Source: Xylographa opegraphella
Taxonomy: Eukaryota
Length of the DNA stretch: 64,000 nt
Direction of reading: 5' to 3'
Assembly: GCA_022813865.1 (NCBI GenBank)
Contig: JALDZX010000022.1
Span: forward strand, 1-64,000
The position numbers and the translations under genes are program-made. Within the stretch, counting starts at the first letter, position 1. The number at the start of each line of letters is the position of its first letter. The notes beneath the pieces are model-generated. The model made no database searches and was not told the origin of the DNA. It saw only the letters and a list, made by a program, of their open reading frames with translations. This document shows, piece after piece, positions 24,160 through 61,339 of the stretch.

Positions 24160-26001
24160 TCAGCTGAGGTAGACACCATCCCATCCCTTGCCACCAGCTA
24201 CATTGCCCCCAACTGCTTCGCCGTGCATGATACCCTCAACATATGCGTATCCGATCAGCCAGTGGAGGACATGTGGACGATCTCGGTCGAAGAACAATTT
24301 GTTGTTCAGTCGCAGGATAAATGGTGTACGTCCACCCGCTAGGATGGCTACTTTGTCGCCTGCCAGGGTTTGAAGAGGGCCCAGGCCGATAAAGCCACTC
24401 CTTGTGCGGAAGAAAATGCGGGTTGTGACAAAGGGGAGCAGATGTTCCAAAGCCTGAGCGGTGTTCTTGTTCCGGAACTCGTCAGGAGTGTAGCCGCCAG
24501 CCTTCGTGACCCACTTATGCCACTTTTGGAAGAAGTCGGATCTTGTCGAGTCGGGATTTGTAGCGTTATGATGGTGAGACCTTTGTTTGGGGACCTTAGC
24601 TGGTCCCCAGATAGTATTCTGCGTAGCTGAAGATGAAACAGGAGATCGATGATGTGTTCCAGCGATCCGCTCCCACTCGAGGAAACAGGCGTTGAAAGCC
24701 TCGGCAAGTTTTTCTATAGACTTCACGCTCTTTAGTAAAACTTGGCTGGTGCTCAACAGCACAATCTCGTCGATATGATAGGCCCCTATAGCTAGCACGG
24801 ACCTTCCTAGAATAAGACGAGGGTTCGGTTTCATGTATCCGCATGAATTATATTCGAGTGTGCTTTTGAGAAGCGTACCATGTCCCCGCAGGTCTTTCCT
24901 CCAGTCGGGCACCCACGAAGGTAATCCAGGTCCTTGCTTCTTGAACGTGGAGTATAGAAAGATATCGAGATTTTGTTCGGATTCAATGATGGCCCGCGTG
25001 GTCTGCTGGTAAACATCGGAAACAGGCAGTGTGTAATCGGGCCGCAAGTTCATCTCCACCTCTGCCAAAGCCAAGAGACCATAGACCTTATCCCTTTCAT
25101 CCGAACACAAACCATTGGAAAAGGACCTTGTGGCCCATAAGAGGCTCCTCTTTTCGATCGCTCTCGTTCTGTTATCGATAAGCTTATACATGTTGTGTAT
25201 TGTATTCTCATGTGTTGACCCCAAGGATGCCTGCAAATCTTTTCTACTGCAGCATACGAGATGTTTCTTGAAGCTGTCAGCAAAGGAGCGGAAGACACTC
25301 CAGGGTAGCGTCGTTCTGCCGCACACAATATCCGCCTCCTTGCAGAGGGCGATCTCCTGAACGCACCATATTCTCAACCACCAAGGTCGGTTCATCAGCT
25401 TCTTCACAGCTTTGAAGCGCTTAGCAACTTGCATCTGCCAGGCGTGTCCATTCCATCTGGGCGCGAAGAAGATATCTGATTGCTTGAAATGTATATCCGT
25501 ACTTAATGCAAGCATGGTATGCAGAGCTAGATCGCTGTCATCCGATGCTTCACCCAACCAGGCCAGAACACGAGTAGCGGACCGGTATATCGATCCCATC
25601 TGTTGTACTTGGTGGGACCGCTCCTGCAAATTCGCTTGATCTATAGAGAGTGCATCAACCCAGAGCCAACGCGGATCATATCTATCCCGGAGGTATCGTA
25701 GAGCATCCCAAAGGTTGGATCCAATGCAGATCTCATGCCCGTCTAGTAAGATTCGCTGGCCGGAATGATTGGTTCCCCACGCATAGGACAATGCTTCATA
25801 CGGGGGACGGTCATCCAAAGAGATCTTGTTCAACTCGCAGACAATAGGTGCCGAACCAGTACCAGGATATAGACAGATCAGACGAATCTCGTGATCTGCT
25901 GGATCCAGTCGATGTTTCGAATAGATTGCAGAATACTCCGGGGACTTCGAGCCGGAGTATAGATTTTGAAGCTGGTTCTGAAGCCAGGTATTCGATTGCA
26001 T
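24160..26001 (-). CDS. HET-domain (HET-6-like) heterokaryon incompatibility protein
   Basis: YEALSYAWG, LWVDALSIDQ, QVQQMGSIYRSATRVLAWLG, WWLRIWCVQE, DERDKVYGLL, LPSWVPDW, LIGYAYVEGIMHGE. Confidence 0.95.
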   Translation of the reverse strand: MQSNTWLQNQLQNLYSGSKSPEYSAIYSKHRLDPADHEIRLICLYPGTGSAPIVCELNKISLDDRPPYEALSYAWGTNHSGQRILLDGHEICIGSNLWDALRYLRDRYDPRWLWVDALSIDQANLQERSHQVQQMGSIYRSATRVLAWLGEASDDSDLALHTMLALSTDIHFKQSDIFFAPRWNGHAWQMQVAKRFKAVKKLMNRPWWLRIWCVQEIALCKEADIVCGRTTLPWSVFRSFADSFKKHLVCCSRKDLQASLGSTHENTIHNMYKLIDNRTRAIEKRSLLWATRSFSNGLCSDERDKVYGLLALAEVEMNLRPDYTLPVSDVYQQTTRAIIESEQNLDIFLYSTFKKQGPGLPSWVPDWRKDLRGHGTLLKSTLEYNSCGYMKPNPRLILGRSVLAIGAYHIDEIVLLSTSQVLLKSVKSIEKLAEAFNACFLEWERIAGTHHRSPVSSSATQNTIWGPAKVPKQRSHHHNATNPDSTRSDFFQKWHKWVTKAGGYTPDEFRNKNTAQALEHLLPFVTTRIFFRTRSGFIGLGPLQTLAGDKVAILAGGRTPFILRLNNKLFFDRDRPHVLHWLIGYAYVEGIMHGEAVGGNVAGGKGWDGVYLS

Positions 26002-28398
26002 CGTGACGGGTGGTCACTGGCGGACTACTGTTTGCGTAGCTTAGCCTGGCATAGTGACCACGATCGGTAGCTGCTTCGCTTCTGGGGGATTTCCTCACAG
26101 GTCCGACAAAGGAAGCGAGTCTTACGATGGCACACTCTTGTCGCCTCCTGTAAGAATCAGGCTGGGGATATTTCCAGAGCTGAGGCTTGAGCTCAAATAG
26201 CAATGCACTCATGTGCGAGTGAGGAATAACGCAGCAGACAGAATCAAGTCGTGTAACCAGGAAGGGGAACAACAAAAGAAAATCATGTGTAAAATGTATC
26301 AAGCTTTCCTCAAGATTGGCATTGCTATCAAACGACAGCCGGCATCGTCCGAGACTATGCGTGTCTGAGGCACGGCCTGTGATCAAGAGTCATCTCATTA
26401 TCATTGATGAGGAATTCGGGGAAGCCCAAAGTCAGGGGCGCGAGGCAGACTGCTGAATCTGGGCTGAAAGTGTCTGGCGCTTGACAGTCTAGAACAGCCT
26501 CCGAGCGCTTGGCGCAAGCCATCTGGCGTCTCCGCCAAACGTGCCTCTGTATAAGTGGTGGATCGAGAGATGCTCTGGCAACCGTAATAGAGAAATACAG
26601 CTGGCCACAGCTGGCCGCAGTCGTGAGGGTGAGAAACAAGAAGTGTCCGGCTCGATCACGATGACCCAGGATCGAGAGAGGTCGTGAAAGGATTATTTGA
26701 CGTTTGGTTAGGCTCGTCCTAGTGGGGCCGACCTCCAAAACTTCGTAGTAACCGGCTAATATTGGGGACCGAGCCGCCTACCTAGCCTGGAGACTTAAGA
26801 GCCTCCTCCCCTGACACAATATTCCCGACACAATACTAATGTCCGAACTCCTATTTCTTTCGCCATCCGTGTGTCCAAATTTACGTAGTACTTTCGGATT
26901 TCAGTAGTCTCAACGTCTACTTAGTACCAAGGCACTAAGTTATCATTGCTAGCTCGAGCCTTTGAGCGACAGAGAAACCTGAAAAGCTACATAAAAGTGA
27001 CTTTTTGGGGAGTTGCATTGTATCACCGCGAGCCGAGCTACCTCGCTGACAGGTACCTTACTTTACTGCTCAAGTCGCGAAAAAAAAAATATGGATAGTT
27101 GGAAACTGATCAGCAGGAAGAGGACATGAACTGCGAGTTGTCCACTGAGCTCACCTCGCTGTTCCACATTACTGAACAGAAGTCACTGGAATTTTTTCAA
27201 ATGGAAGGGTCTCCTGTCACAGATACAGTATTGAAAGTTGAGGAGCAACTGTCAGGTCTTCAGCCGCCGAGTATACCTCGGTGCTACTCAACGACGAGGA
27301 AAAGCAATATTTCAGGCAGTTGGACACCGAAGATATGATACACCATTGGGATTCTGTAGCAAGATTTATCACCATCGGTAAGCTTTTTACGGCAGAGAAT
27401 GTTTGAACCAGCTCCGGTTTTGGAGATATCAAGTTGAAGTTGCAAGCGGATCGAGAATGAGTTATAGAACAAGGGCCTGTGCTTTAACATCTGCCCCCGT
27501 CGCAAGATGAACCAATCAAAATGCATTTCTGCAATAGCTAAGGCCAGAGCATAATGGACAGGTAGGTATCCGGAGGAGCACCTTACGTTTGAAAGATGCT
27601 CTCAATACTCCCCTATCATCAGCTTTAAGGCGGGGACTTTGGAGGCGGCCTTGATCCAACTATATTGGATGCACGCAGAGAAGCGGTGGTTCTAGTGGCA
27701 GTGCTCCGTGAGCTTGGGTGCGCAAAGTTAGTGACAGATCTGCGTTGGAGAGCGCATTGGCAAAGCGAGAAGGGTGTCTATTCAGATAACTTGGCATCTT
27801 GAGCAACTTCCAAGGGAAACGTGCAACACCCTCTAGCAAGCTTGTCGATGTTGAGTATGAAGCTTGCGATTCAGCAGGAAATGAAGGAGTAAACTTCTAG
27901 GAGAAGGGCTTGAAAAAGAACTTAAGGGGTCAGGGCCTCACGGATAAGAATCACTGGTAGTGGGTCATGGGTTTCGTAGGATGTGCGTTCAGAGGTGGCC
28001 ATTGTGACTGACTCTCTGTAAGATCCTGGAAACCAGCGGATGACCCTACCATACCCTGTAGATCTTCGGTTGGTGGAAGTTCAAGCAAGCTTCTTACATA
28101 TGGTCCTTCAACTCCAGATATGCGCTCATAAAGTGTGCCTCACGCTCGATATCTATTACATCTGCCCTCACACATACAACTCTCTTTCTGTAGAAGAAAA
28201 AACGATTCCTGCGTACGGAAGTCATCGAGACAAAATCGAGCCACAGTGGAAGTCGCGATACAATCAATGTACTGTTATGTAAGATACTACACGCTCCTTT
28301 GAACGGAGAAAGCATATCGATGGCGGAGCGGAAACCATGACCGGCATATCGGATGTTCCGACGAGGCTTGGCATTAGCTCCTAACCACTCTCGCGGTT

Positions 28399-28462: not shown

Positions 28463-28512
28463 NNNNNNNNNNNNNNNNNNNNNNNNNNNNNNNNNNNNNN
28501 NNNNNNNNNNNN
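28463..28512. other. Assembly gap (N run)
   Basis: Run of n characters. Confidence 1.
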
Positions 28513-33482: not shown

Positions 33483-36400
33483 TCAATTCCAACCTAGAGA
33501 GTTTTCTGCCATTACTGGAGCGCTGATGTTTTGTCGTCCAGAGCTGCCGCCGCTTCGACCGCTGCCTCTCGAGTCGCGCCCGCTGTAGCCATATGTGTCA
33601 TAATCGCCGCCGCTGTAGCCTCTTGCTCCACTCATTAGTGCCGTACCGGCACCGCTCCTGATCTCTCCATGGCTTTGCGACATACTCGATGTGTCAATCA
33701 GAGAGGGCGATCTGCGGTGAATTGAATTCCTCTTCCGGTATCTCTTGGCAACGAAGAACATTGCGGCACCGTAGAGCGCAGCGCCAGCAACAACCCCAAC
33801 ACCAATACCAACAGAAGCAGCTTTCACAGAACTCGAGTTGTCAGTACCCGCTCCTATTGGCGCGCCCTCGGTAACGACGGCACTGGCGGCGGATGTGGGC
33901 GAGCCAGTATTGCTTCCAGGATTAGCACCACCGAGATCACCACCAGCAAGAATCGGGAAGGAAGGATTGATCATGCTGACGAGAGTATTGACACTGTCGT
34001 TAGGGTTGTCGTACAGTGCACTGGTAGGCGTATGGATGTCAAGACTCAGATCATTGACGAAACTGGAAGGAATATATGCCATAGCTAGAGTCGTGACATA
34101 ACCTAGTGTAGCCGTTGTATCATATGGTTGAAGAGTCTGCATCGTGATGCTTGATACGTCGAGGCCAAGACCATATGCTAATCCCATGGGTAGATACGTG
34201 AACAGCTGATCTATTGATTTATAGTTTGAAACCACAAACTCGTAATTCAAGGGGAACAGAAAGCCGACCTGGACGAGAGTCGTGTTGTCCGGCTGTTGTG
34301 GGATTATACCACTAGGTGGGGCGACGACACGGGGCAACGCTGATGGAATCCCAGTAGGAGCGTTGGAAGCCGTGGAAGGCACGGGACTCGAGGCGGTCGG
34401 ATCGATAAATATGCTGGTAGGTAAGTACTGCGATGTAAGAGCATCTGATCCAGTAGGCACAAGGCTTGTTGGACCAGTAGTAGCAAATGAGACAACAGGA
34501 CTGATAGTGCTTGGGGCTGCGCTCTCAGATGCACTGCCGGAGACGACAGGCAATGCAGTGCCTGTGAGGGAACTCGTAAAAGTTGTCCCTGAGGCAGTGA
34601 TCACGGTTACATCAGATAAAGCTGATACAGATTCAGACGGAGACGAGCCGTTTGTGGTACTTGTCGCACTTGGCGGCACTCCGGTATCAGTGAGTGTACC
34701 AGAAATCTGTGAACCAGAGACCGTCGATGCTTGAGACACACTGCTTATAGCAGTCCCTCCAGAGATAGATCCCGAAGCGGTTGAAACCGGAACAGATACA
34801 ACTCCTGAGCTCAACGAGCTACTCCCACCAGTTATAGAAGCTCCCGGCAGGGTAGATCCGAAAGTATTGGTAGTAGAGGCGGGTAGGGCACTTATTAATG
34901 AAGAGCCAGTGACCCCACTAACGGTGCCGGTAGTGGCTGTTACGGAACCGGTGGGTGAGACTCCGATCGTGGAGATAGATGCACTCGCAGAAAGTATGAA
35001 GGACAGACTCACTGCAGTATCTGTCGATACAAGAGTGCCAGTCAGGAGGGTTCCAGAGGTCGTGATTGGTGGTATCACTACAGGGAGCGATACAGTTGAA
35101 CTTGCCACAAACGTGTCGGTAGGTATCGAGATCAGGGTCTCTGTTGGAGAAGATGTAGAAATTGGGATAATTTCAGTACCTGTATTAGTTGGCGACGATA
35201 CAGGAACAGGAAGTACCGAAACAGTTGTCGGCGCTGAACTCGGGATAGAAATTGTTTCTGTCCCAGTAGAAATATCAGTCGGCGTGAGAGTTGGAACTAT
35301 TGGTATCACGGTGGTGTCTGTTGGTGTAGGTAGTGGGAGTGACACAACAGGGGATGTTCCAGTCGGAGCAGAGATTGGCAGTGATACTATTATAGAGGTA
35401 TCTGTCGGGGCCGAAAGTGGGAGAGACACAACCACCGAAGTGTCGGTCGGGGCAGAGATAGGTAGTGATAAAACCACAGAAGTATCAGTCGGTGCGGAAA
35501 CTGGAGATATCACCACAGAAGTCCCAGTCGGTGCGGAAACCGGAAGGGATACTACTATAGAAGTTCCAGTGGGAGCAGAGACAGGAAGCGATATGACCAC
35601 AGACGTGTCAGTCGGAGCGGAGATTGGAAGCGATAGGACCACAGAAGTGTCCGTCGGAGCGGAGATCGGAAGCGAAAGGACCACGGAAGTGCCAGTTGGA
35701 GCTGAGATTGGAAGTGATATAACTAATGAGGTATCTGTAGACGCAGAACTTGGAGGTGGTATTAACGTGTCAGTTGGCGAAGAGCTTGGAATAGGTGCAG
35801 CTGTGGTGTCAGTCGGTGCAGAAATCGGAACCGGCACGACCGTATCTGTCTCCGTGGCAGTTGGGATGGGACTCGGTACCGGCGAGAGTGGAGTGTTAGT
35901 AGGCGCAGAAGTTGGGCTTGGTGTAGCCGTCTCCGTCGGAGCAGAGATTGGAACGGGCACCACAGTATCTGTTTCTGTGAGCGTTGGTAATGGCGCAGAA
36001 ACAGGAGCTGTTCCAGTAGGAAGCGGAGCAACAATGGACGACAATATCGACTGGATTATTGATGATAGTACCGAAGGAACTGCAGTTGGAAGATCCGTTG
36101 ACAAAGGAACCACCGAGGATATAGGCAGCGGTAATACTGTGTCGGTTTGCTGAGCACTCGTTGCATCGGAAGAAGCAGAGACAGGGACTACAGTCGGGAC
36201 AGAGCCTAGAGTTACCGAATCTGTGGTTGGAATACTCGCGGGAACCACTGAGGGGAAGATTGTCCCTGTAGATGTTCCACTAGGCGCAGCTGAAGCTGGC
36301 ACAGTGGGCGGGACACTTTGAGAAACCGATACACTATTCGATGGTTGAGACGAAGGAACAGCAGTATCAGTCGGGGGAGGCGGGGTAGGCGTATCTGGAG

Positions 36401-37196
36401 GTGTGTCCGAGGGTAATACTGTAGGTGTGGGTGTGTCCGAAGGGAGTACTGTAGGTGTTGGAGTGTCCGACGGGAGTACTGTAGGTATCACTGTGTCTGA
36501 GGATATTACTGTAGGTATCGCTGTGTCTGAGGGTAGTACTGAAGGTGTCGCTGTGTCTGAGGTTAGTACTGTAGGTATTGATGTATCCGTAGGTGTATCT
36601 GTTGGTAAAGGAGGAGCTACTGTAGGAGTCTCCGAAGGTTGAGCCGTGGGTGTAGGTGTAGATGTATCCGTAGGAGTGTCTGTTGGCAAAACTGTAGGTG
36701 TAGGACTGTCGGTCGATACATCTGTAGGCGTAGGTGTGTCCGTAGGGGTCTCCGTTGGCGGGGGAGGAGGAGAAATGGTTGGAGTGTCCGTTGGTACATC
36801 TGTAGGAAGACCTGGCGAGGAAAGCGGACTGGAAGTCGGTAATATATCTGAAGATTGCAAGGACTCCGTCGTATCGGAGATACTTGATACCAAACTGCTG
36901 AAGAGACTTTCGAGAGATGATGTATCTCGCCGCGAAGCCAGTGATGAATCTGGTTGATCTGCGGTTGTCACCGTATCAGGCAATGTTGCGGGAACGGAAG
37001 TCGGTGTCTCTGCAGGCGTTGATGCTGGTGTCGTAGTGTTTGAGAACACTTGACGCTTGACATGCCGGGGGAAGTAGTGCCTACGCTCCAGAGCCGTTTC
37101 CCGTGGTTGCGGAGGTACATTGAAACCGCATACTGGACCAAGGACAGACACAAACGCAAACGACGCCACGAGAGCATTTGGAGTGGTTCGGACCAT
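33483..37196 (-). CDS. MSB2: Signalling mucin, Msb2/Hkr1 type
   Basis: Signal peptide, long S/T/P-rich repeats, juxtamembrane VQVGFLFPLNYEFVV domain, one TM helix, and cytoplasmic tail ending ISAPVMAENSLGWN. Confidence 0.92.
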   Translation of the reverse strand: MVRTTPNALVASFAFVSVLGPVCGFNVPPQPRETALERRHYFPRHVKRQVFSNTTTPASTPAETPTSVPATLPDTVTTADQPDSSLASRRDTSSLESLFSSLVSSISDTTESLQSSDILPTSSPLSSPGLPTDVPTDTPTISPPPPPTETPTDTPTPTDVSTDSPTPTVLPTDTPTDTSTPTPTAQPSETPTVAPPLPTDTPTDTSIPTVLTSDTATPSVLPSDTAIPTVISSDTVIPTVLPSDTPTPTVLPSDTPTPTVLPSDTPPDTPTPPPPTDTAVPSSQPSNSVSVSQSVPPTVPASAAPSGTSTGTIFPSVVPASIPTTDSVTLGSVPTVVPVSASSDATSAQQTDTVLPLPISSVVPLSTDLPTAVPSVLSSIIQSILSSIVAPLPTGTAPVSAPLPTLTETDTVVPVPISAPTETATPSPTSAPTNTPLSPVPSPIPTATETDTVVPVPISAPTDTTAAPIPSSSPTDTLIPPPSSASTDTSLVISLPISAPTGTSVVLSLPISAPTDTSVVLSLPISAPTDTSVVISLPVSAPTGTSIVVSLPVSAPTGTSVVISPVSAPTDTSVVLSLPISAPTDTSVVVSLPLSAPTDTSIIVSLPISAPTGTSPVVSLPLPTPTDTTVIPIVPTLTPTDISTGTETISIPSSAPTTVSVLPVPVSSPTNTGTEIIPISTSSPTETLISIPTDTFVASSTVSLPVVIPPITTSGTLLTGTLVSTDTAVSLSFILSASASISTIGVSPTGSVTATTGTVSGVTGSSLISALPASTTNTFGSTLPGASITGGSSSLSSGVVSVPVSTASGSISGGTAISSVSQASTVSGSQISGTLTDTGVPPSATSTTNGSSPSESVSALSDVTVITASGTTFTSSLTGTALPVVSGSASESAAPSTISPVVSFATTGPTSLVPTGSDALTSQYLPTSIFIDPTASSPVPSTASNAPTGIPSALPRVVAPPSGIIPQQPDNTTLVQVGFLFPLNYEFVVSNYKSIDQLFTYLPMGLAYGLGLDVSSITMQTLQPYDTTATLGYVTTLAMAYIPSSFVNDLSLDIHTPTSALYDNPNDSVNTLVSMINPSFPILAGGDLGGANPGSNTGSPTSAASAVVTEGAPIGAGTDNSSSVKAASVGIGVGVVAGAALYGAAMFFVAKRYRKRNSIHRRSPSLIDTSSMSQSHGEIRSGAGTALMSGARGYSGGDYDTYGYSGRDSRGSGRSGGSSGRQNISAPVMAENSLGWN
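35330..35730 (-). repeat. Degenerate 39-bp (13-aa, SLPISAPTDTSVV-like) coding tandem repeats in MSB2
   Basis: About ten copies visible in the translation; synonymous positions have diverged. Confidence 0.85.
36380..36600 (-). repeat. 30-bp (10-aa, PTVLPSDTPT-like) coding tandem repeats in MSB2
   Basis: Repeating gtgtc(c/t)ga...tactgtaggt units on the + strand. Confidence 0.85.
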
Positions 37197-37267
37197 TTCG
37201 GAAGACTTTGTATATATATGGATACAGTAATTAAAGATAGTTGGTTTTGTAGAACGAGCGGTTCAAC

Positions 37268-43376: not shown

Positions 43377-43823
43377 AATAGTTGCCAAGGATGGCAAAGC
43401 GAGCGTATGGAAAGGTAGATGAGCATAGGTCAATAAAAATTGCAATGAGAGACGTATGAGGTAGAGGACGATATTGTCCATAGGGGGACGGACCTATTCT
43501 AGGAAGCATTGCAAGGAGTTTTCTCTACTTCTAGTAGCCGTAGAAGTTCCAGGAGTGATGTACTCCTATTGAGGGGTCGAGAAGACCTTGCAGAATATCA
43601 GTATCACCATTAGTACATTAGATAATGAGCAGCAGTGTTTGAAAGCACAACAACGGTTGTATTGTTCCATGTCTAGGCTGAGCCGTGCTCCTGCCCCAAC
43701 ACTTATGTTAGCCAATGTCTTCCACAATGTCCATTTCTGGTAAGTTGAAAATCGTCTTCCCCGCTCAGTTGTTTGATGCATACAGAAATATATATCTATA
43801 AGATTTTGCTCGAACAAAACCAC

Positions 43824-43973
43824 GGGGAATTAGCGCAATGGTAGCGCGTGGCTCTCCTAGTACTCGGACGAAAGTCGTAGTCAAGCCAAGGTTGAGGGTG
43901 TAGGTCTTTCCTCAACTTTGATTTTACATTCCCCAGTATACTGATTTCCTACAGTCGAGTCCCTTGTTCCTCG
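43824..43973 (+). tRNA. tRNA-Arg(CCT) with a canonical intron (43860-43882) and a spliceosomal-type intron (43900-43954)
   Basis: Acceptor stem GGGGAAT/GTTCCTC, D-arm GCGC-AATGGTA-GCGC, anticodon stem TGGCT/AGCCA with CCT at 43856-43858, T-arm GAGGG-T|TCGAGT-CCCTT, discriminator G. Mature length 72 nt. T5 run at 43987. Confidence 0.9.
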
Positions 43974-44317
43974 ATATGTTGTCTTGTTTTTGCAGTTTTT
44001 GGGACTATTTGGCCTGCGTTGTGGGCGGAACACGGACCGCCAAAAACCTCGCTCGCTTGGATCGTCAGTTGATTGATGTCTGTCTCGTCAGTTTCTTTTA
44101 GCTCTCTTCGAGTTGCACTTTCGGATCAGATTATCGTTCCAGCATGCTGCGTGTGCTTAAGAATTTCACTTTGTAATGGTCACACAGTTGATCACGGGCA
44201 TACACATTCATGGTATACGTTGAAGCTACTGGAAGACTATTGAACAATAAATTGGCGCTAGCTTTTGTCCCAGGCATATTCTTATCTCCTCAATAAACTT
44301 GAGCATACCCCCGAACG

Positions 44318-56496: not shown

Positions 56497-58569
56497 TCAA
56501 CATTTTAGTACCATCCCAACCCACCAGTCCACAAACTCTTGCAAGCCCAATTGCCTCGACGGCGTCCCTCCGATCCCAACGACCTCTTTCCCCAGGCCCT
56601 CTCTTTCCCTCCACTCCTTCTCCGCTTTCTCCCCAGCTCGCCGCACAATCTCATCCTCATTCTCCGCCCGATACAGATCGCACCTGTCGCACTCCCCACA
56701 CGTCCCGCCGGCCGGTCGGAAATGCTGGCAGAAATGGCGGTAACCCTCGCCTTCGCCATCACCGCCGCCTTCCTGGGCCTGCGCTCGAAGTATGATGTTC
56801 ATTTCGTCAGCTGGCTGTCGAATGACGTTTTGCGCGGCTGACGTCTTACGCCCGAGGCCTTGACGGCATATATAGCACATAGTGTACCCACAGACGCAAA
56901 CCATCTTGTTGCAGCCACTGTCTTTGACAAAGCCGAGGCCGCATCTGGGGCAGGTGCGTTTGAGTGCAGCGGTCCTAGCGGCTTCAACGGTCGTTCGAAG
57001 GGAGAGTGTTGCAGATTCATGGCACATGTGCGGATCCTGCCAAGGCTTGTGGCATTGAAGACACGAGGTACGAAGACAGGATGGTGAACGGCATTTGAAG
57101 CGAGAAGACAGGTAGGTCTTACGAGTTAGCTTGTCGCAGGAGTGATTAAGCAGCACCGAAGGCGCAGGGAGAGCAAACAGCCGTGCAAGAATGGCATATA
57201 GACAAAGCAATCCAAGGAAGTTGAAAGACACGGCAAGTAGAAGCAGTGTACGAACAGGCCGCGAGGTATTGAGACCCCAGCCAAGACTGTTAGAGAGATA
57301 GAGCTCATCAGCCTCGGCGTAGTTGCAAAACGGGCACCGCACGAGAGGAACTTGTGCTTTGATAAGCGCTTGATCGGCTAGACGTGACTCCAGCTTCTTC
57401 CACATCTGCACTCCCCCTTTGGCGCTATGACCGATCGCTCGGTAGGCGAGTTCGTGGGGTATGCAGCCGTTGCAAGGTATGGGATCTGTTGGAGCTAAAC
57501 AAGCTATCTGACCTCGGGTATGATCAATATTGAGACCCCATGATTGGCCGTAGAGTGCCTCTGAAACTGCATGCTGTATACAGTTGAAGCAAATTATATG
57601 GGTACCCGTCGTGCAAGTCGCCATATGCTCAAATGTCGTCTCTGAAAAGCAGCACTCGCACTCGTAAAGAGCACTGGCTTCTTCTGCCTCTTGCTCGTTG
57701 AGGAGGGTTGCAAGCTCAACATTGATGGCCTCTTGTGCTTGATGGCGCTTCTCAAGTAAAGGTTTCAAGATTGTCCTGTAAAGCTCAGAGTCAAGTTCCT
57801 TGTTTCCGCTTTCTCGTAGACTGGGGATCGGAACTGACCCCCCTTCTGCAGTTTTCGTCCAAATGAGCATAAAGTGTTTGTCTGATACTTCTTGCGCAGG
57901 CTTTCGCCACTTGAGCAAAAACGTAGAGAAGCTACTCCTCCAACTCTTGCTTGCTAGCCCTAGCAGCACCGGCCTCGAAGAAGTGTAGTAATGATTTTGC
58001 TCGGCCAAAACTCCGTCTACTGTACTTCGATTTAGGGCTTTAAACTCTTGATACAACACAGTCCTCACTGCTTGCTTGTAGTTTTCTGAGCGGAACAGTT
58101 CGTGTACAGGCACTTGTATCCTATCTCGGCCATCACCCACATCTCCTAGAAGCTGCCGGATCTCGGAGTACTGCTGCGGAGCGTCCGATCGAGTGTCCAG
58201 TCTATTGATGCGCCATCGGCTATTGACCCACTTGGCCTGGTGTTTGATCAACTGCTCCGCTACTATGTGCAGTCGGCTGTCTCCACTAAATGTACCAAGC
58301 ATCTCTCGAAAGACCTCAGGACGAACATTCGGAAAAATGTCGGCAAGCACGAGAAGGGCGTTGTTGAGGTCCGCAAGACTGGCGAATTTCCTGGGAGCCT
58401 GAGTGAAGACATCCCCGGCAGATGCCAGGACGGTCGAGAGCTCAGTACTGGCTGATCGGATGGTCTTAGGGACGGATGTACTCGAAGATGGGGAACGGAA
58501 TTGTCGTCGGCGGCTTTCAGACGGTAACTGCTCGTCTGAGCGAGAGGAGCGAAATGCGGCGAAGACCAT
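56497..58569 (-). CDS. RBR (RING-IBR-RING) E3 ubiquitin ligase with a CUE-like N-terminus (RNF216/TRIAD3-like)
   Basis: LADIFPNV (CUE-like), ECECCF...HIICFNC, RCPFCNY, SCLQCHKPW..HMC, CPRCGLGFVKDSGCNKMVCVCGYTMCYICR. First in-frame ATG at 58569. Confidence 0.9.
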   Translation of the reverse strand: MVFAAFRSSRSDEQLPSESRRRQFRSPSSSTSVPKTIRSASTELSTVLASAGDVFTQAPRKFASLADLNNALLVLADIFPNVRPEVFREMLGTFSGDSRLHIVAEQLIKHQAKWVNSRWRINRLDTRSDAPQQYSEIRQLLGDVGDGRDRIQVPVHELFRSENYKQAVRTVLYQEFKALNRSTVDGVLAEQNHYYTSSRPVLLGLASKSWRSSFSTFLLKWRKPAQEVSDKHFMLIWTKTAEGGSVPIPSLRESGNKELDSELYRTILKPLLEKRHQAQEAINVELATLLNEQEAEEASALYECECCFSETTFEHMATCTTGTHIICFNCIQHAVSEALYGQSWGLNIDHTRGQIACLAPTDPIPCNGCIPHELAYRAIGHSAKGGVQMWKKLESRLADQALIKAQVPLVRCPFCNYAEADELYLSNSLGWGLNTSRPVRTLLLLAVSFNFLGLLCLYAILARLFALPAPSVLLNHSCDKLTRKTYLSSRFKCRSPSCLRTSCLQCHKPWQDPHMCHESATLSLRTTVEAARTAALKRTCPRCGLGFVKDSGCNKMVCVCGYTMCYICRQGLGRKTSAAQNVIRQPADEMNIILRAQAQEGGGDGEGEGYRHFCQHFRPAGGTCGECDRCDLYRAENEDEIVRRAGEKAEKEWREREGLGKEVVGIGGTPSRQLGLQEFVDWWVGMVLKC

Positions 58570-58735
58570 CTTCTTAAGGATGGCTGGCGTGTGGGCCCTA
58601 CATGCTGCTGGGAGTGAAAGACAGCTCTGTCCTTTCAGTCGAGAAGAGTGTGTAGGTGCAAAGACCAAGCTATCAAACAAGCCTCAGTCAAATTTGTAAT
58701 AATATTGTAAAATAAGAACTCTCTCGCTTAAAACA

Positions 58736-58890
58736 GGCCTGATGGTACGAAAATACGAAATCGAGTTGAGTTTGTCTCTTTGCTGACAATTTGCACAGGT
58801 CTAGTGGTATGATTGTCGCTTCGGGTTCGCCTGAGTATCTTAGATACTTAGATTTGTGACAGGCCCCGGGTTCAAATCCCGGTCAGGCCC
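58736..58890 (+). tRNA. tRNA-Pro(CGG) with a spliceosomal-type intron (58745-58798) and a canonical intron (58826-58854)
   Basis: Acceptor stem GGCCTGA/TCAGGCC (perfect), TG|GTCTAGTGGTATGAT, anticodon stem GTCGC/GTGAC with CGG at 58822-58824, T-arm CCGGG-TTCAAAT-CCCGG, discriminator C. Mature length 72 nt. T5 run at 58897. Confidence 0.92.
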
Positions 58891-59398
58891 TGAATATTTT
58901 TGTCGTCATTCTCGATCGCGGTACGACGGCGGTACATGGGCACTATCGTCTTTATTCACTGTTGAGAACAATGTATGCACTCACTATAGCCAGACAATCG
59001 GTAACTTTTTGCCAACCTAAACCAAGCGACAGTCCTTCTTTGGGTAGAAATGCCTGGGCGTCTTGACGATACAGATTATTTACGATCCATCGAGCTTGTG
59101 GAAACATCAATCGATTACGCTCTATTGGTCGTTGTGAATAACATCTATTTGAACGTGCGAAATGTGCAGCGCAGAGACGTAGTTTCATACTAGATACCTA
59201 TCATAAGCTCCATACGCGACGTTAAGGAAATGGGGTATTTTAGCAATAGCAACACCAGGAAATGCCATATCAATACAGTGATGATTTCCGTAAGCCATAG
59301 TCCTTCCGTGAAGCACAATATCATCTGCGAGATTCAGCAATAGTCCTCTAAACCATGACACCGTAGCTCCAGTCTTCAATAATATCAACATGCTGTAA

Positions 59399-61339
59399 TT
59401 AAGCTCCTGAGCCCTTAAGCAGATCACTCCCAGCTTGTCGAATCCTTTTCATTTCCTTGTCGACTCGTAGCGATGCCCCGCCGACTGTCTGTTCGCGGTG
59501 GGATATCTCTTCCTCATACTTCGTTGCAATCTTCCTCTTTTCTTGTCTAGCGTCTTTGTACTTGGTCAGGATGTCTGAAAACAGCCCCAATACCATATCG
59601 CCACATTCCTCATATTTGTCCATCGTCAACGACGAAAAGAAAGAGTATAGCTTTTCTGATCGCTGTTCATCTGTGAGATCTTTCAAGTCCTTAACAAATT
59701 CAAATTGCTTGATTAGCGGCCCGGAGCGAACTTCTTCAGGAAATATTTGGACAGAACCTGTAGGGTCGAAGTCGAAACTCTCAGACCTGAGCTGATCGTA
59801 AGTTGTCTTGGACAACTGATCTTCGGTGTAGTCTAGATCAATGATACGCTTCTGACCACGTGCTGATATCACTTCAGACTGGTGAGGTAGTTGGCCGACA
59901 GTTGGGTTCTTACGAAGGGGCAGTACTTTTTCATCGACCCTCACCTCATACGGCGGCGAGTATAACAAATTCTCGTTCAAGTCTACGCCAGATACGGGAG
60001 GTTCAGGTGTTCTGCCATTGCTCCATTCCTGGGAAATATAATGGATTTTCTGAAGCTGTACCGACCGCTGTTGATCTTCTCCTGCTAAAGTTTGATCGTG
60101 TACGGTGTCATGATGATGCTGTCGGGAGGTATTAGCTGGTTGTCGAGCCACTTCCATCGAATGGTGGTGTTGCAGCGGTCTTGAAGGTCTTGCCTGGGCA
60201 GATGTGGTGTTTTTAGTCAACACTGAAACACACAGACTTTCACCTGTAGGTCTCACAGAAGTCTGACTTCGTGGGTTTGACTGTAACACATCCATACCTG
60301 AAGGGGATCGGAAGTTTGCTGCATACGCATTTCTACCTTGCTGATGTGTAATCGCCAGACTTTCGGAGCCTTTTGCCGATGGAATATGAAAAAAGCCAGG
60401 ACTGCTTGACCTACCGCGATACACTACTTCGCGGCATGGGAGGTGGCCCGGGAGATCCAAATCCTCGGCCTCATGGTCGGAAGTTGGTGGAAATCTAAGG
60501 TTTCCAAGTGAACCTCCGGGAACCTGTTGATTGGGATGAATTGTATTCTGCATTGCATCGAGTTCTCTTTCTAGTGCTTGTGCCGTAGCTGGTGGTATCA
60601 AAGCACTCATACTGGAAATATCGAGGGTGGGATCATCTTCAGCTCCCTCACCCTCCCTAGTGCTATCGGACTCGCTGTCATCTTCGTCTTCGGCGTAATC
60701 GGCGCCCTCCCATACATTATAGCGTCCATGAGATCGAGCAGCCATATAACCGGCGTGATCCATTCCAAAGGACTCAACATGCGTAGATATACCACGTACA
60801 TTGTCACTGTCAACTGGCTCCTGTGTGTTACCGCCTTCATCATAAGTCGCTACAGATTGGTTGTGATGAGTCTGGCTGTCTCCTACCTGGACGCCATCAC
60901 TTATCGTCGTGGTATCATCGAAATCGTCGCCAATATCAGTATCAAACCCATCGCGATTATTGTTCTGATGCTGCAAAGGATCTGCTTCGACTATATGAGC
61001 GACCAAGTCCTTGGAGTCCTTGGAGGGCCATGGTAGTTCGGCATCTGGATGAGATGCAACCTCTGACAAGTTCACAGGATCTGGGGCTGCAAACAAAGGC
61101 CTAGAATGCTCTAATCTCGTCGGCTGCTGCTGAATGCGAGCATTTTGGCCTGCTAGCTGCCGTCGCGAGTTGATGGCTGGAGTTAATGGGTAATTTGTCC
61201 TGTTAACCTTGTATTGACGGGATAGCCCATTCTGCGGGTTGATATTTCTGACATCGGGCAAAGCATGACGCTTTAAGGCATCATCGTGAGAAGGACTTTT
61301 TACATAATCAAACAGCGGTTTCTGTTGAGGAATAGTCAT
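59399..61339 (-). CDS. ECM11 C-terminal domain protein
   Basis: Disordered N-terminus, then LDYTEDQLSKTTYDQLRSESFDFDP...FFSSLTMDKYEECGD... and a coiled-coil C-terminus. Confidence 0.8.
   Translation of the reverse strand: MTIPQQKPLFDYVKSPSHDDALKRHALPDVRNINPQNGLSRQYKVNRTNYPLTPAINSRRQLAGQNARIQQQPTRLEHSRPLFAAPDPVNLSEVASHPDAELPWPSKDSKDLVAHIVEADPLQHQNNNRDGFDTDIGDDFDDTTTISDGVQVGDSQTHHNQSVATYDEGGNTQEPVDSDNVRGISTHVESFGMDHAGYMAARSHGRYNVWEGADYAEDEDDSESDSTREGEGAEDDPTLDISSMSALIPPATAQALERELDAMQNTIHPNQQVPGGSLGNLRFPPTSDHEAEDLDLPGHLPCREVVYRGRSSSPGFFHIPSAKGSESLAITHQQGRNAYAANFRSPSGMDVLQSNPRSQTSVRPTGESLCVSVLTKNTTSAQARPSRPLQHHHSMEVARQPANTSRQHHHDTVHDQTLAGEDQQRSVQLQKIHYISQEWSNGRTPEPPVSGVDLNENLLYSPPYEVRVDEKVLPLRKNPTVGQLPHQSEVISARGQKRIIDLDYTEDQLSKTTYDQLRSESFDFDPTGSVQIFPEEVRSGPLIKQFEFVKDLKDLTDEQRSEKLYSFFSSLTMDKYEECGDMVLGLFSDILTKYKDARQEKRKIATKYEEEISHREQTVGGASLRVDKEMKRIRQAGSDLLKGSGA

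Follow-up and report, generated by a model that had tools for sequence, protein, structure and literature searches.

A tRNA-Pro(CGG) gene with an mRNA-type intron after its ninth nucleotide in Xylographa opegraphella

The window analysed here, a stretch of 64,000 nucleotides from Xylographa opegraphella, contains a tRNA gene with an mRNA-type intron: the first nine nucleotides of a tRNA-Pro(CGG) gene are separated from the rest by a 54-nt GT-AG intron (58745..58798, + strand) that lies between tRNA nucleotides 9 and 10. The anatomy of the gene, the splice signals of the insert, and the conservation of exons and signals beside drifting introns were observed directly. With a short mRNA-type intron after its ninth base, the tRNA very probably depends on the mRNA-splicing machinery for its maturation. 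Judged from the sequence, removal of the 54-nt intron by the spliceosome is very likely, whichever polymerase makes the precursor; it is likely, at a somewhat lower level of confidence, that the gene works with a U2-type spliceosomal intron at 9/10 and a normal tRNA intron, both carried in a Pol III precursor.

Anatomy of the gene and signals of the insert

ARAGORN with default settings found 0 tRNA genes in the raw 64-kb window, and Rfam at gathering scores had no match in it either. When positions 58745-58798 were deleted, ARAGORN reported a tRNA-Pro(cgg) of 72 nt with an anticodon of the NGG class and a complete cloverleaf. The acceptor stem has 7 Watson-Crick pairs, the D loop and the T arm are normal, and G37 is followed by a canonical intron of 29 nt. 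An initial annotation of this DNA had proposed a GT-AG intron after nucleotide 9 of tRNA-Pro(CGG); this detection upon removal of the insert, together with the anatomy, the controls and the conservation described below, backs the proposal.

Exon 1 is formed by GGCCTGATG at 58736-58744 (+ strand; letters checked), directly 5' of the 54-nt insert, and comprises the acceptor 5' strand (nt 1-7), T8 and G9. As had been claimed, its displaced 7-mer is the partner of the 3' acceptor strand TCAGGCC at 58883-58889, with 7/7 pairs and with T8 and G9 next in line, and the letters directly before the D arm, which starts at 58799, fail as an acceptor strand, with 1/7 pairs. All letters quoted in the initial annotation were found in place, including GGT on both sides of the insert. 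Its description of a 9-nt first exon holds for the mature tRNA; in the primary transcript, the first exon would include the 5' leader as well. Exon 2 (58799..58825, +), delimited by ARAGORN, holds the D arm, the anticodon stem 5' strand, the anticodon CGG (58822-58824) and G37, and shows no difference in two related contigs treated below (X2 record 2 and X3 record 8). It is followed at 37/38 by the canonical tRNA intron of 29 nt (58826..58854, +; ARAGORN), a second intron absent from the initial annotation, and then by exon 3 (58855..58890, +; ARAGORN) with the anticodon stem 3' strand, the T arm, the acceptor 3' strand and the discriminator C, the tRNA body ending at 58890. RNAfold predicts a hairpin of ~9 bp within the canonical intron (58829-58850). 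In the anticodon stem, G30 pairs with T40, and the pair at 58815/58860 is G27-C43, as opposed to C27-G43 in the tRNA-Pro(AGG) genes of metagenome loci L004 and L006, both sides having changed.

The A box is a consensus that covers nt 8-19, and in this gene it is not contiguous, being split after nt 9 by 54 nt. The downstream elements of a type 2 Pol III gene are present, namely an intact B box at 58869-58879, which is the sole B-box pattern match in the window, and a T5 run at 58897..58901 (+), a candidate Pol III terminator and the only run of at least 4 T within 58600-59000. Upstream lies an A+T-rich, TATA-like stretch (58690..58717, +) with 80-90% A+T in three 10-nt steps, situated 46 to 19 nt before mature base 1, which is a candidate upstream promoter element. 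TATATAA is found at the same distance upstream in an orthologous contig, at a loose end of that contig. No RNA data set was listed over 58200-59600, a blank that carries no information about expression.

Several other folds of the locus were considered and rejected. Relaxed ARAGORN settings gave a tRNA-Ser(ACT) with the same acceptor and T arm, but with a 3-bp D stem and no GG loop; a Ser(GCT) fold obtained by deleting 58804-58851 likewise has a 3-bp D stem and no GG loop, and it lacks a branch site. A mascRNA match in Rfam (E 0.57) covers the T arm only. The gene next door, on the opposite strand, encodes a RING-between-RING protein. It shares 87% identity with a protein of Xylographa pallens and 82-85% with proteins of three further Xylographa species, which points to a lichen-forming fungus of the Xylographaceae, or close to them, as the host. 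Elsewhere in the window, an ORF of 1,259 aa at 33483-37262 (-) is Ser/Thr/Pro-rich and repetitive with a C-terminal hydrophobic segment, and presumably resembles a signalling mucin, and a 617-aa ORF at 24160-26013 (-) looks HET-domain-like by eye.

The insert carries a full set of splice signals. Its 5' splice site, GTACGA (58745..58750, +), has G at +5 and a non-consensus A at +6, as judged against mRNA introns of the window; its branch site, GCTGAC (58782..58787, +), places the branch A at 58786 (-13) and reads CTAAC in an orthologue through a G>A change at 58785; after 8 further nt it ends with the 3' splice site CAG (58796..58798, +), which is kept in X2 record 2 and X3 record 8. It thus combines the features of a U2-type intron, that is, GT with G at +5, CTRAC near the 3' end, YAG and a length typical of the genome. 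Eight mRNA introns picked from the window range in length from 47 to 58 nt and in branch A position from -9 to -15, with G at +5 in 8/8 and T at +6 in 7/8. The tRNA insert falls within both ranges and departs from the set in its A at +6; this comparison is partly circular, because the intron boundaries were chosen among candidates, partly by consensus. Five of the 8 junctions are backed by Pfam continuity and 3 by joined reading frames alone, and a loose de novo intron list was too noisy to be used by itself. Owing to the GGT at both junctions, the insert can be cut in 4 equivalent registers, of which one has GT..AG ends. The insert at 9/10 does not occupy the endonuclease-type position 37/38, which is taken by the separate 29-nt intron.

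Controls, a second split gene and relatives

At the composition of the window, chance alone should produce an exact acceptor partner with T8 behind it 0.003 times in every 150 nt. The combination of GT-purine-N-G, branch motif and YAG occurred in 5 of 300,000 random 54-mers, the patterns having been set after the site was seen. We then deleted GT..AG stretches of 40-100 nt one at a time throughout the window and ran ARAGORN on each product: 3 of 29,192 deletions yielded a tRNA, and these correspond to tRNA-Pro(CGG), to a tRNA-Arg(CCT), and to a poor overlapping fold of the Pro locus. The same single-deletion test in 10 resampled windows gave 0/288,246. Paired deletions (2,599 pairs of introns in the window) revealed no additional tRNA gene. 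As a control of layout, 36 matches to the Pro D arm from the window and 32 loci were examined, the fungal origin of these controls not being established; the 3' acceptor strand could be scored in 27, and in 25/27 of these a 5' acceptor strand with 6-7 pairs stands directly before the D arm, the exceptions being L003 and the window. The nine unscored matches were three genes with a split T loop (L002, L004 and L006) and six that were cut off or off-pattern.

The tRNA-Arg(CCT) gene (43824..43973, +), uncovered by the deletion test, is likewise missed by ARAGORN and Rfam. It has a canonical intron of 23 nt (43860..43882, +), which ARAGORN recognised after the deletion, and a GT-AG intron of 55 nt (43900..43954, +; deletion test) in the T loop between nt 54 and 55, where it splits the B box. 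The signals of the latter are GTAGGT, ACTGAT with A at -11, and CAG, and its 54/55 junction is that of the second intron of L002, L004 and L006. A GT-AG intron is therefore present in 2/2 tRNA genes found in the window; between the Pro and Arg GT-AG introns there is a short weak match only. TATA-like letters occur at 43789-43802, and a T5 run stands at 43987, 13 nt behind the gene.

Related contigs came from three DNA runs of a single study, referred to as X1, X2 and X3. One contig of X1 spans the locus unchanged, and X1 is possibly this DNA's own source, hence not independent; on 58500-59100, X1 gave 1 record at 80% likeness and no joint in a filtered listing. More informative is X2 record 2, from a minor organism of that run, which spans 58727-58890 with 21 differences and 2 gaps. 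Of these differences, 16 could be placed, and they fall on 9/41 positions of the GT-AG intron, 7/29 of the canonical intron and 0/32 of the exons; the contrast between exons and introns (0/32 versus 16/70 listed positions) gives a Fisher p of 0.002. The contig has a depth of 4.5, at which an individual difference may be an error. Another five differences, close to the ends of the contig, are unplaced, which leaves the 5' splice site, exon 1 and the greater part of exon 3 outside this comparison. The record keeps CAG, and its branch site has changed from CTGAC to CTAAC. In X3 record 8, CAG and exon 2 are unchanged behind an unrelated intron end that, in the 30 letters shown, has CTGAC at the same -13 spacing. 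Past 58826 this record continues with T and then GTACTC, which may reflect either a canonical intron of another sequence or an additional GT-AG intron, at 38/39.

X2 record 3, from the run's main organism (on 58798-58877), is a tRNA-Pro without an insert at 9/10; it breaks off after T60 into GTAGGG..., possibly an intron at 60/61. X2 record 4 (on 58806-58881, depth 3.4) is tRNA-Pro-like, and in the 30 letters of its loose 5' end TTAAC and TAG just before G19 suggest a D-loop intron at 18/19.

A metagenome scan for YAG directly before a Pro D arm, in which a branch site was not required, gave 6 loci. L002, L004 and L006 are tRNA-Pro(AGG) genes. In each, the first exon has 9 nt, an intron of 53 nt with GT, branch site and CAG lies at 9/10, and a canonical intron and a GT-AG intron at 54/55 come after it; L002 equals L004 over the gene and is counted once. 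ARAGORN finds these genes only when both GT-AG introns are deleted. Between L004 and L006 the exons are identical (72/72), as is the canonical intron (21/21), whereas the GT-AG introns agree at 83% and 64% and the flanks at 73-75%. In L004 (2942-3140), L002 and L006, both the A and the B box are split by GT-AG introns. A protein search placed L004 no more closely than as a distant ascomycete, the sole organism-named match among the 120 matches listed being 53% identical, and the host of L004 seems to be distant from that of the window. The 9/10 intron of the window aligns with those of L004 and L006 at 47-49%, versus 48 +/- 3% for shuffles.

The scan also returned contiguous genes. L001 (266-274) and L005 are contiguous tRNA-Pro genes and not intron cases; in both, A replaces the nearly invariant T8. 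L003 was set aside as well, since 400 nt of its sequence contained no 5' strand that matches. Among further metagenome loci, of which 26/27 were read and none is shown to be fungal, no displaced acceptor strand with a GT-AG insert was seen. A further locus, L012, carries tandem tRNA-Pro copies (TGG, CGG, AGG) at ~155-nt spacing on a short contig filed under a bacterial genome; the array is probably eukaryotic DNA.

Maturation, rival explanations and origin of the insert

From these data a pathway of maturation may be proposed. A Pol III precursor of ~170 nt would start shortly before 58736 and extend through the T5 run at 58897; no run of at least 4 T was found in the precursor before this terminator. 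Because the intron splits the A-box region, TFIIIC would not place the start site as usual, and the start would probably be set by the A+T-rich stretch at 58690-58717 acting with the intact B box. The spliceosome would excise the 54-nt intron as a lariat with its branch at A58786. The resulting junction of G9 with G10 would restore the D arm and the core. The tRNA endonuclease and ligase would next remove the 29-nt intron, and the ends would be processed as usual. This order is suggested by the way the eukaryotic endonuclease reads the mature tRNA body, the yeast enzyme making contact with both D arm and acceptor stem (accessible part of PMC3978253). End trimming need not await splicing, since the acceptor stem and the T arm are already able to pair in the unspliced RNA.

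The strongest competitor concerns the polymerase. The precursor could be a Pol II transcript, capped and spliced co-transcriptionally by the spliceosome, from which RNase P and RNase Z would cut out the tRNA. Introns that interrupt internal promoter elements (in tRNA-Pro the A-box region, in tRNA-Arg the B box, in L002, L004 and L006 both) speak for such a transcript, as do TATA-like stretches 20-45 nt upstream of both window tRNA genes and a divergent protein gene that starts ~170 nt away. However, a T5 run stands 6 nt behind the Pro gene and 13 nt behind the Arg gene, the B box of the Pro gene is intact, and every GT-AG intron examined is free of 5-T runs, as Pol III read-through needs. Moreover, U6 provides a Pol III product that gets spliced, as stated in the available text of PMC5855946. 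We consider a Pol II precursor unlikely and prefer a Pol III precursor that is spliced.

Less probable still is that the gene is dead or truncated: the insert may have killed it, or Pol III may start inside the insert and produce an RNA without the acceptor 5' strand, with the splice signals being leftovers. The AG of the insert followed by exon 2 differs from the A-box consensus at one position (T8), which would allow a start inside the insert. Loss of the gene may also be tolerable: since a UGG tRNA could in principle decode CCG, tRNA-Pro(CGG) need not be essential and may be dispensable. Yet every stem pairs once the insert is deleted, both window tRNA genes have the split build, and exons and splice signals are kept while introns change, both in the X2 orthologue (p 0.002) and in L004/L006. 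These observations argue for a working gene with a spliced intron.

Removal of the insert by the tRNA endonuclease at a BHB motif, in the style of archaea or Cyanidioschyzon, or by self-splicing is very improbable. Precedents exist, as non-canonical introns are found in the D and T arms and in the acceptor stem of Crenarchaeota tRNAs, and C. merolae has disrupted tRNA genes (PMC3978253, in the part available). In the present insert, however, no register fits a 4-bp helix with two 3-nt bulges (the central helix has 0-2/4 pairs and the inner helix 1/3), and conservation between species concerns the branch site and YAG rather than a helix. A group I intron is contradicted by the length of 54 nt, by the lack of a register with U before the intron and G at its end, and by the lack of an Rfam match at the gathering score. 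An assembly artefact that joined an mRNA intron into a tRNA gene has next to no probability. The window is indeed a scaffold, as seen from a 50-N run at 28463-28512, but this gap is far from the tRNA-Pro locus, the arrangement recurs, with 21 differences, in a contig from the run of another organism, and metagenome contigs share the junction.

As to the origin of the insert, the initial annotation had taken the GGT repeat as fitting reverse splicing or an insertion with duplication. GGT is present at both junctions but proves neither, since a 3-nt GGT repeat needs no duplication and arises wherever a GT..AG intron occupies a G|GT site. The insert has a terminal inverted repeat of 0 nt and a direct repeat of 3 nt, the latter explained by the splice signals alone, and thus lacks transposon-type ends (terminal inverted repeat plus target duplication). 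The 54/55 introns of tRNA-Arg, L002, L004 and L006 sit at T|TC, and that of tRNA-Arg has a single register and no junction repeat. A search of the window and 32 loci for copies of the intron, suggested earlier as a check for an introner-like family, found none. Reverse splicing, Introner-like insertion and transfer between isoacceptor genes are possible origins of the 9/10 intron.

Implications and comparison with known systems

We incline, by a modest margin over even odds, to the view that in this and other filamentous ascomycetes a sizeable share of tRNAs is split by spliceosomal introns at recurring sites (9/10 and 54/55, and probably also 18/19 and 60/61), some of them within the A and B boxes. 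If this is true, the split tRNA genes would rely mainly on upstream elements for their expression, the spliceosome would become a requirement of translation, and the tRNA sets annotated for these fungi would be systematically incomplete. Both tRNA genes of the window are invisible to ARAGORN and Rfam defaults, so tRNA counts and codon-decoding inferences for such fungi may be wrong. The tRNA-Pro gene could serve as a short substrate for asking by what means the spliceosome is recruited to a Pol III transcript that has no cap, and as a model of tRNA gene function when the internal promoter is split.

Koehrer, Vogel and Domdey are said to have engineered, in 1990, a yeast Pol III pre-tRNA with a pre-mRNA intron that was spliced by the pre-mRNA pathway. 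By that account, the construct shares with the present gene the combination of a Pol III pre-tRNA and pre-mRNA splicing; it differs in being artificial, with the intron at the anticodon, whereas the genes of the window are natural, conserved and interrupted at other sites. Natural eukaryotic tRNA introns are described, in the accessible parts of two reviews (PMC10275265, PMC13149111), as lying at 37/38 and being removed independently of the spliceosome and of GT-AG motifs. The Pro gene and the Arg gene each have one intron of this canonical kind, of 29 nt and 23 nt respectively, from which the 54-nt insert at 9/10 differs by its position and its GT, branch and AG signals, and a natural tRNA that needs both splicing systems would break the rule given in these reviews. 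The BHB introns of Crenarchaeota and Cyanidioschyzon merolae (PMC3978253, in part) resemble the insert in lying outside the anticodon loop and in hiding tRNAs from gene finders, but no register of the Pro insert forms a BHB. In our survey of the literature by titles and the starts of abstracts, largely outside subscription journals, there was no natural tRNA with a spliceosomal intron, and the available text of PMC12530127 and PMC13130702 has nothing on such a tRNA.

Spliceosomal introns themselves are known from other fungal non-coding RNA genes. They are abundant in the rDNA of lichen fungi. The part of PMC5855946 that was accessible lists them in Rhodotorula U1, U2 and U5 and in ascomycete rDNA (Takahashi 1993, 1996; Bhattacharya 2000) and names no tRNA among their hosts. 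Those cases share with the present one an mRNA-type intron in the gene of an abundant fungal non-coding RNA, and they differ in host RNA and polymerase. The closest counterpart is U6, a Pol III product (10.1101/2023.01.27.525755, in part), which carries spliceosomal introns in S. pombe and many other fungi (Tani and Ohshima 1989, 1991; Canzler et al. 2016; all in PMC5855946, in part). Like the tRNA, fungal U6 is a short, structured, non-coding Pol III RNA whose introns have a canonical 5' site, branch site and 3' site, with the rest of the intron sequence not conserved and several introns possible per gene. Unlike U6, the tRNA is no part of the spliceosome, so that the proximity argument for reverse splicing does not apply to it; its precursor also needs the tRNA endonuclease, and its intron lies in the internal promoter region. 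For S. pombe U6, splicing is proven; for tRNA-Pro, it is deduced from the sequence. By extending the U6 precedent to an RNA outside the spliceosome, the present gene bears on how new introns arise, and it adds tRNA, as a new class, to the hosts of an intron type already known.
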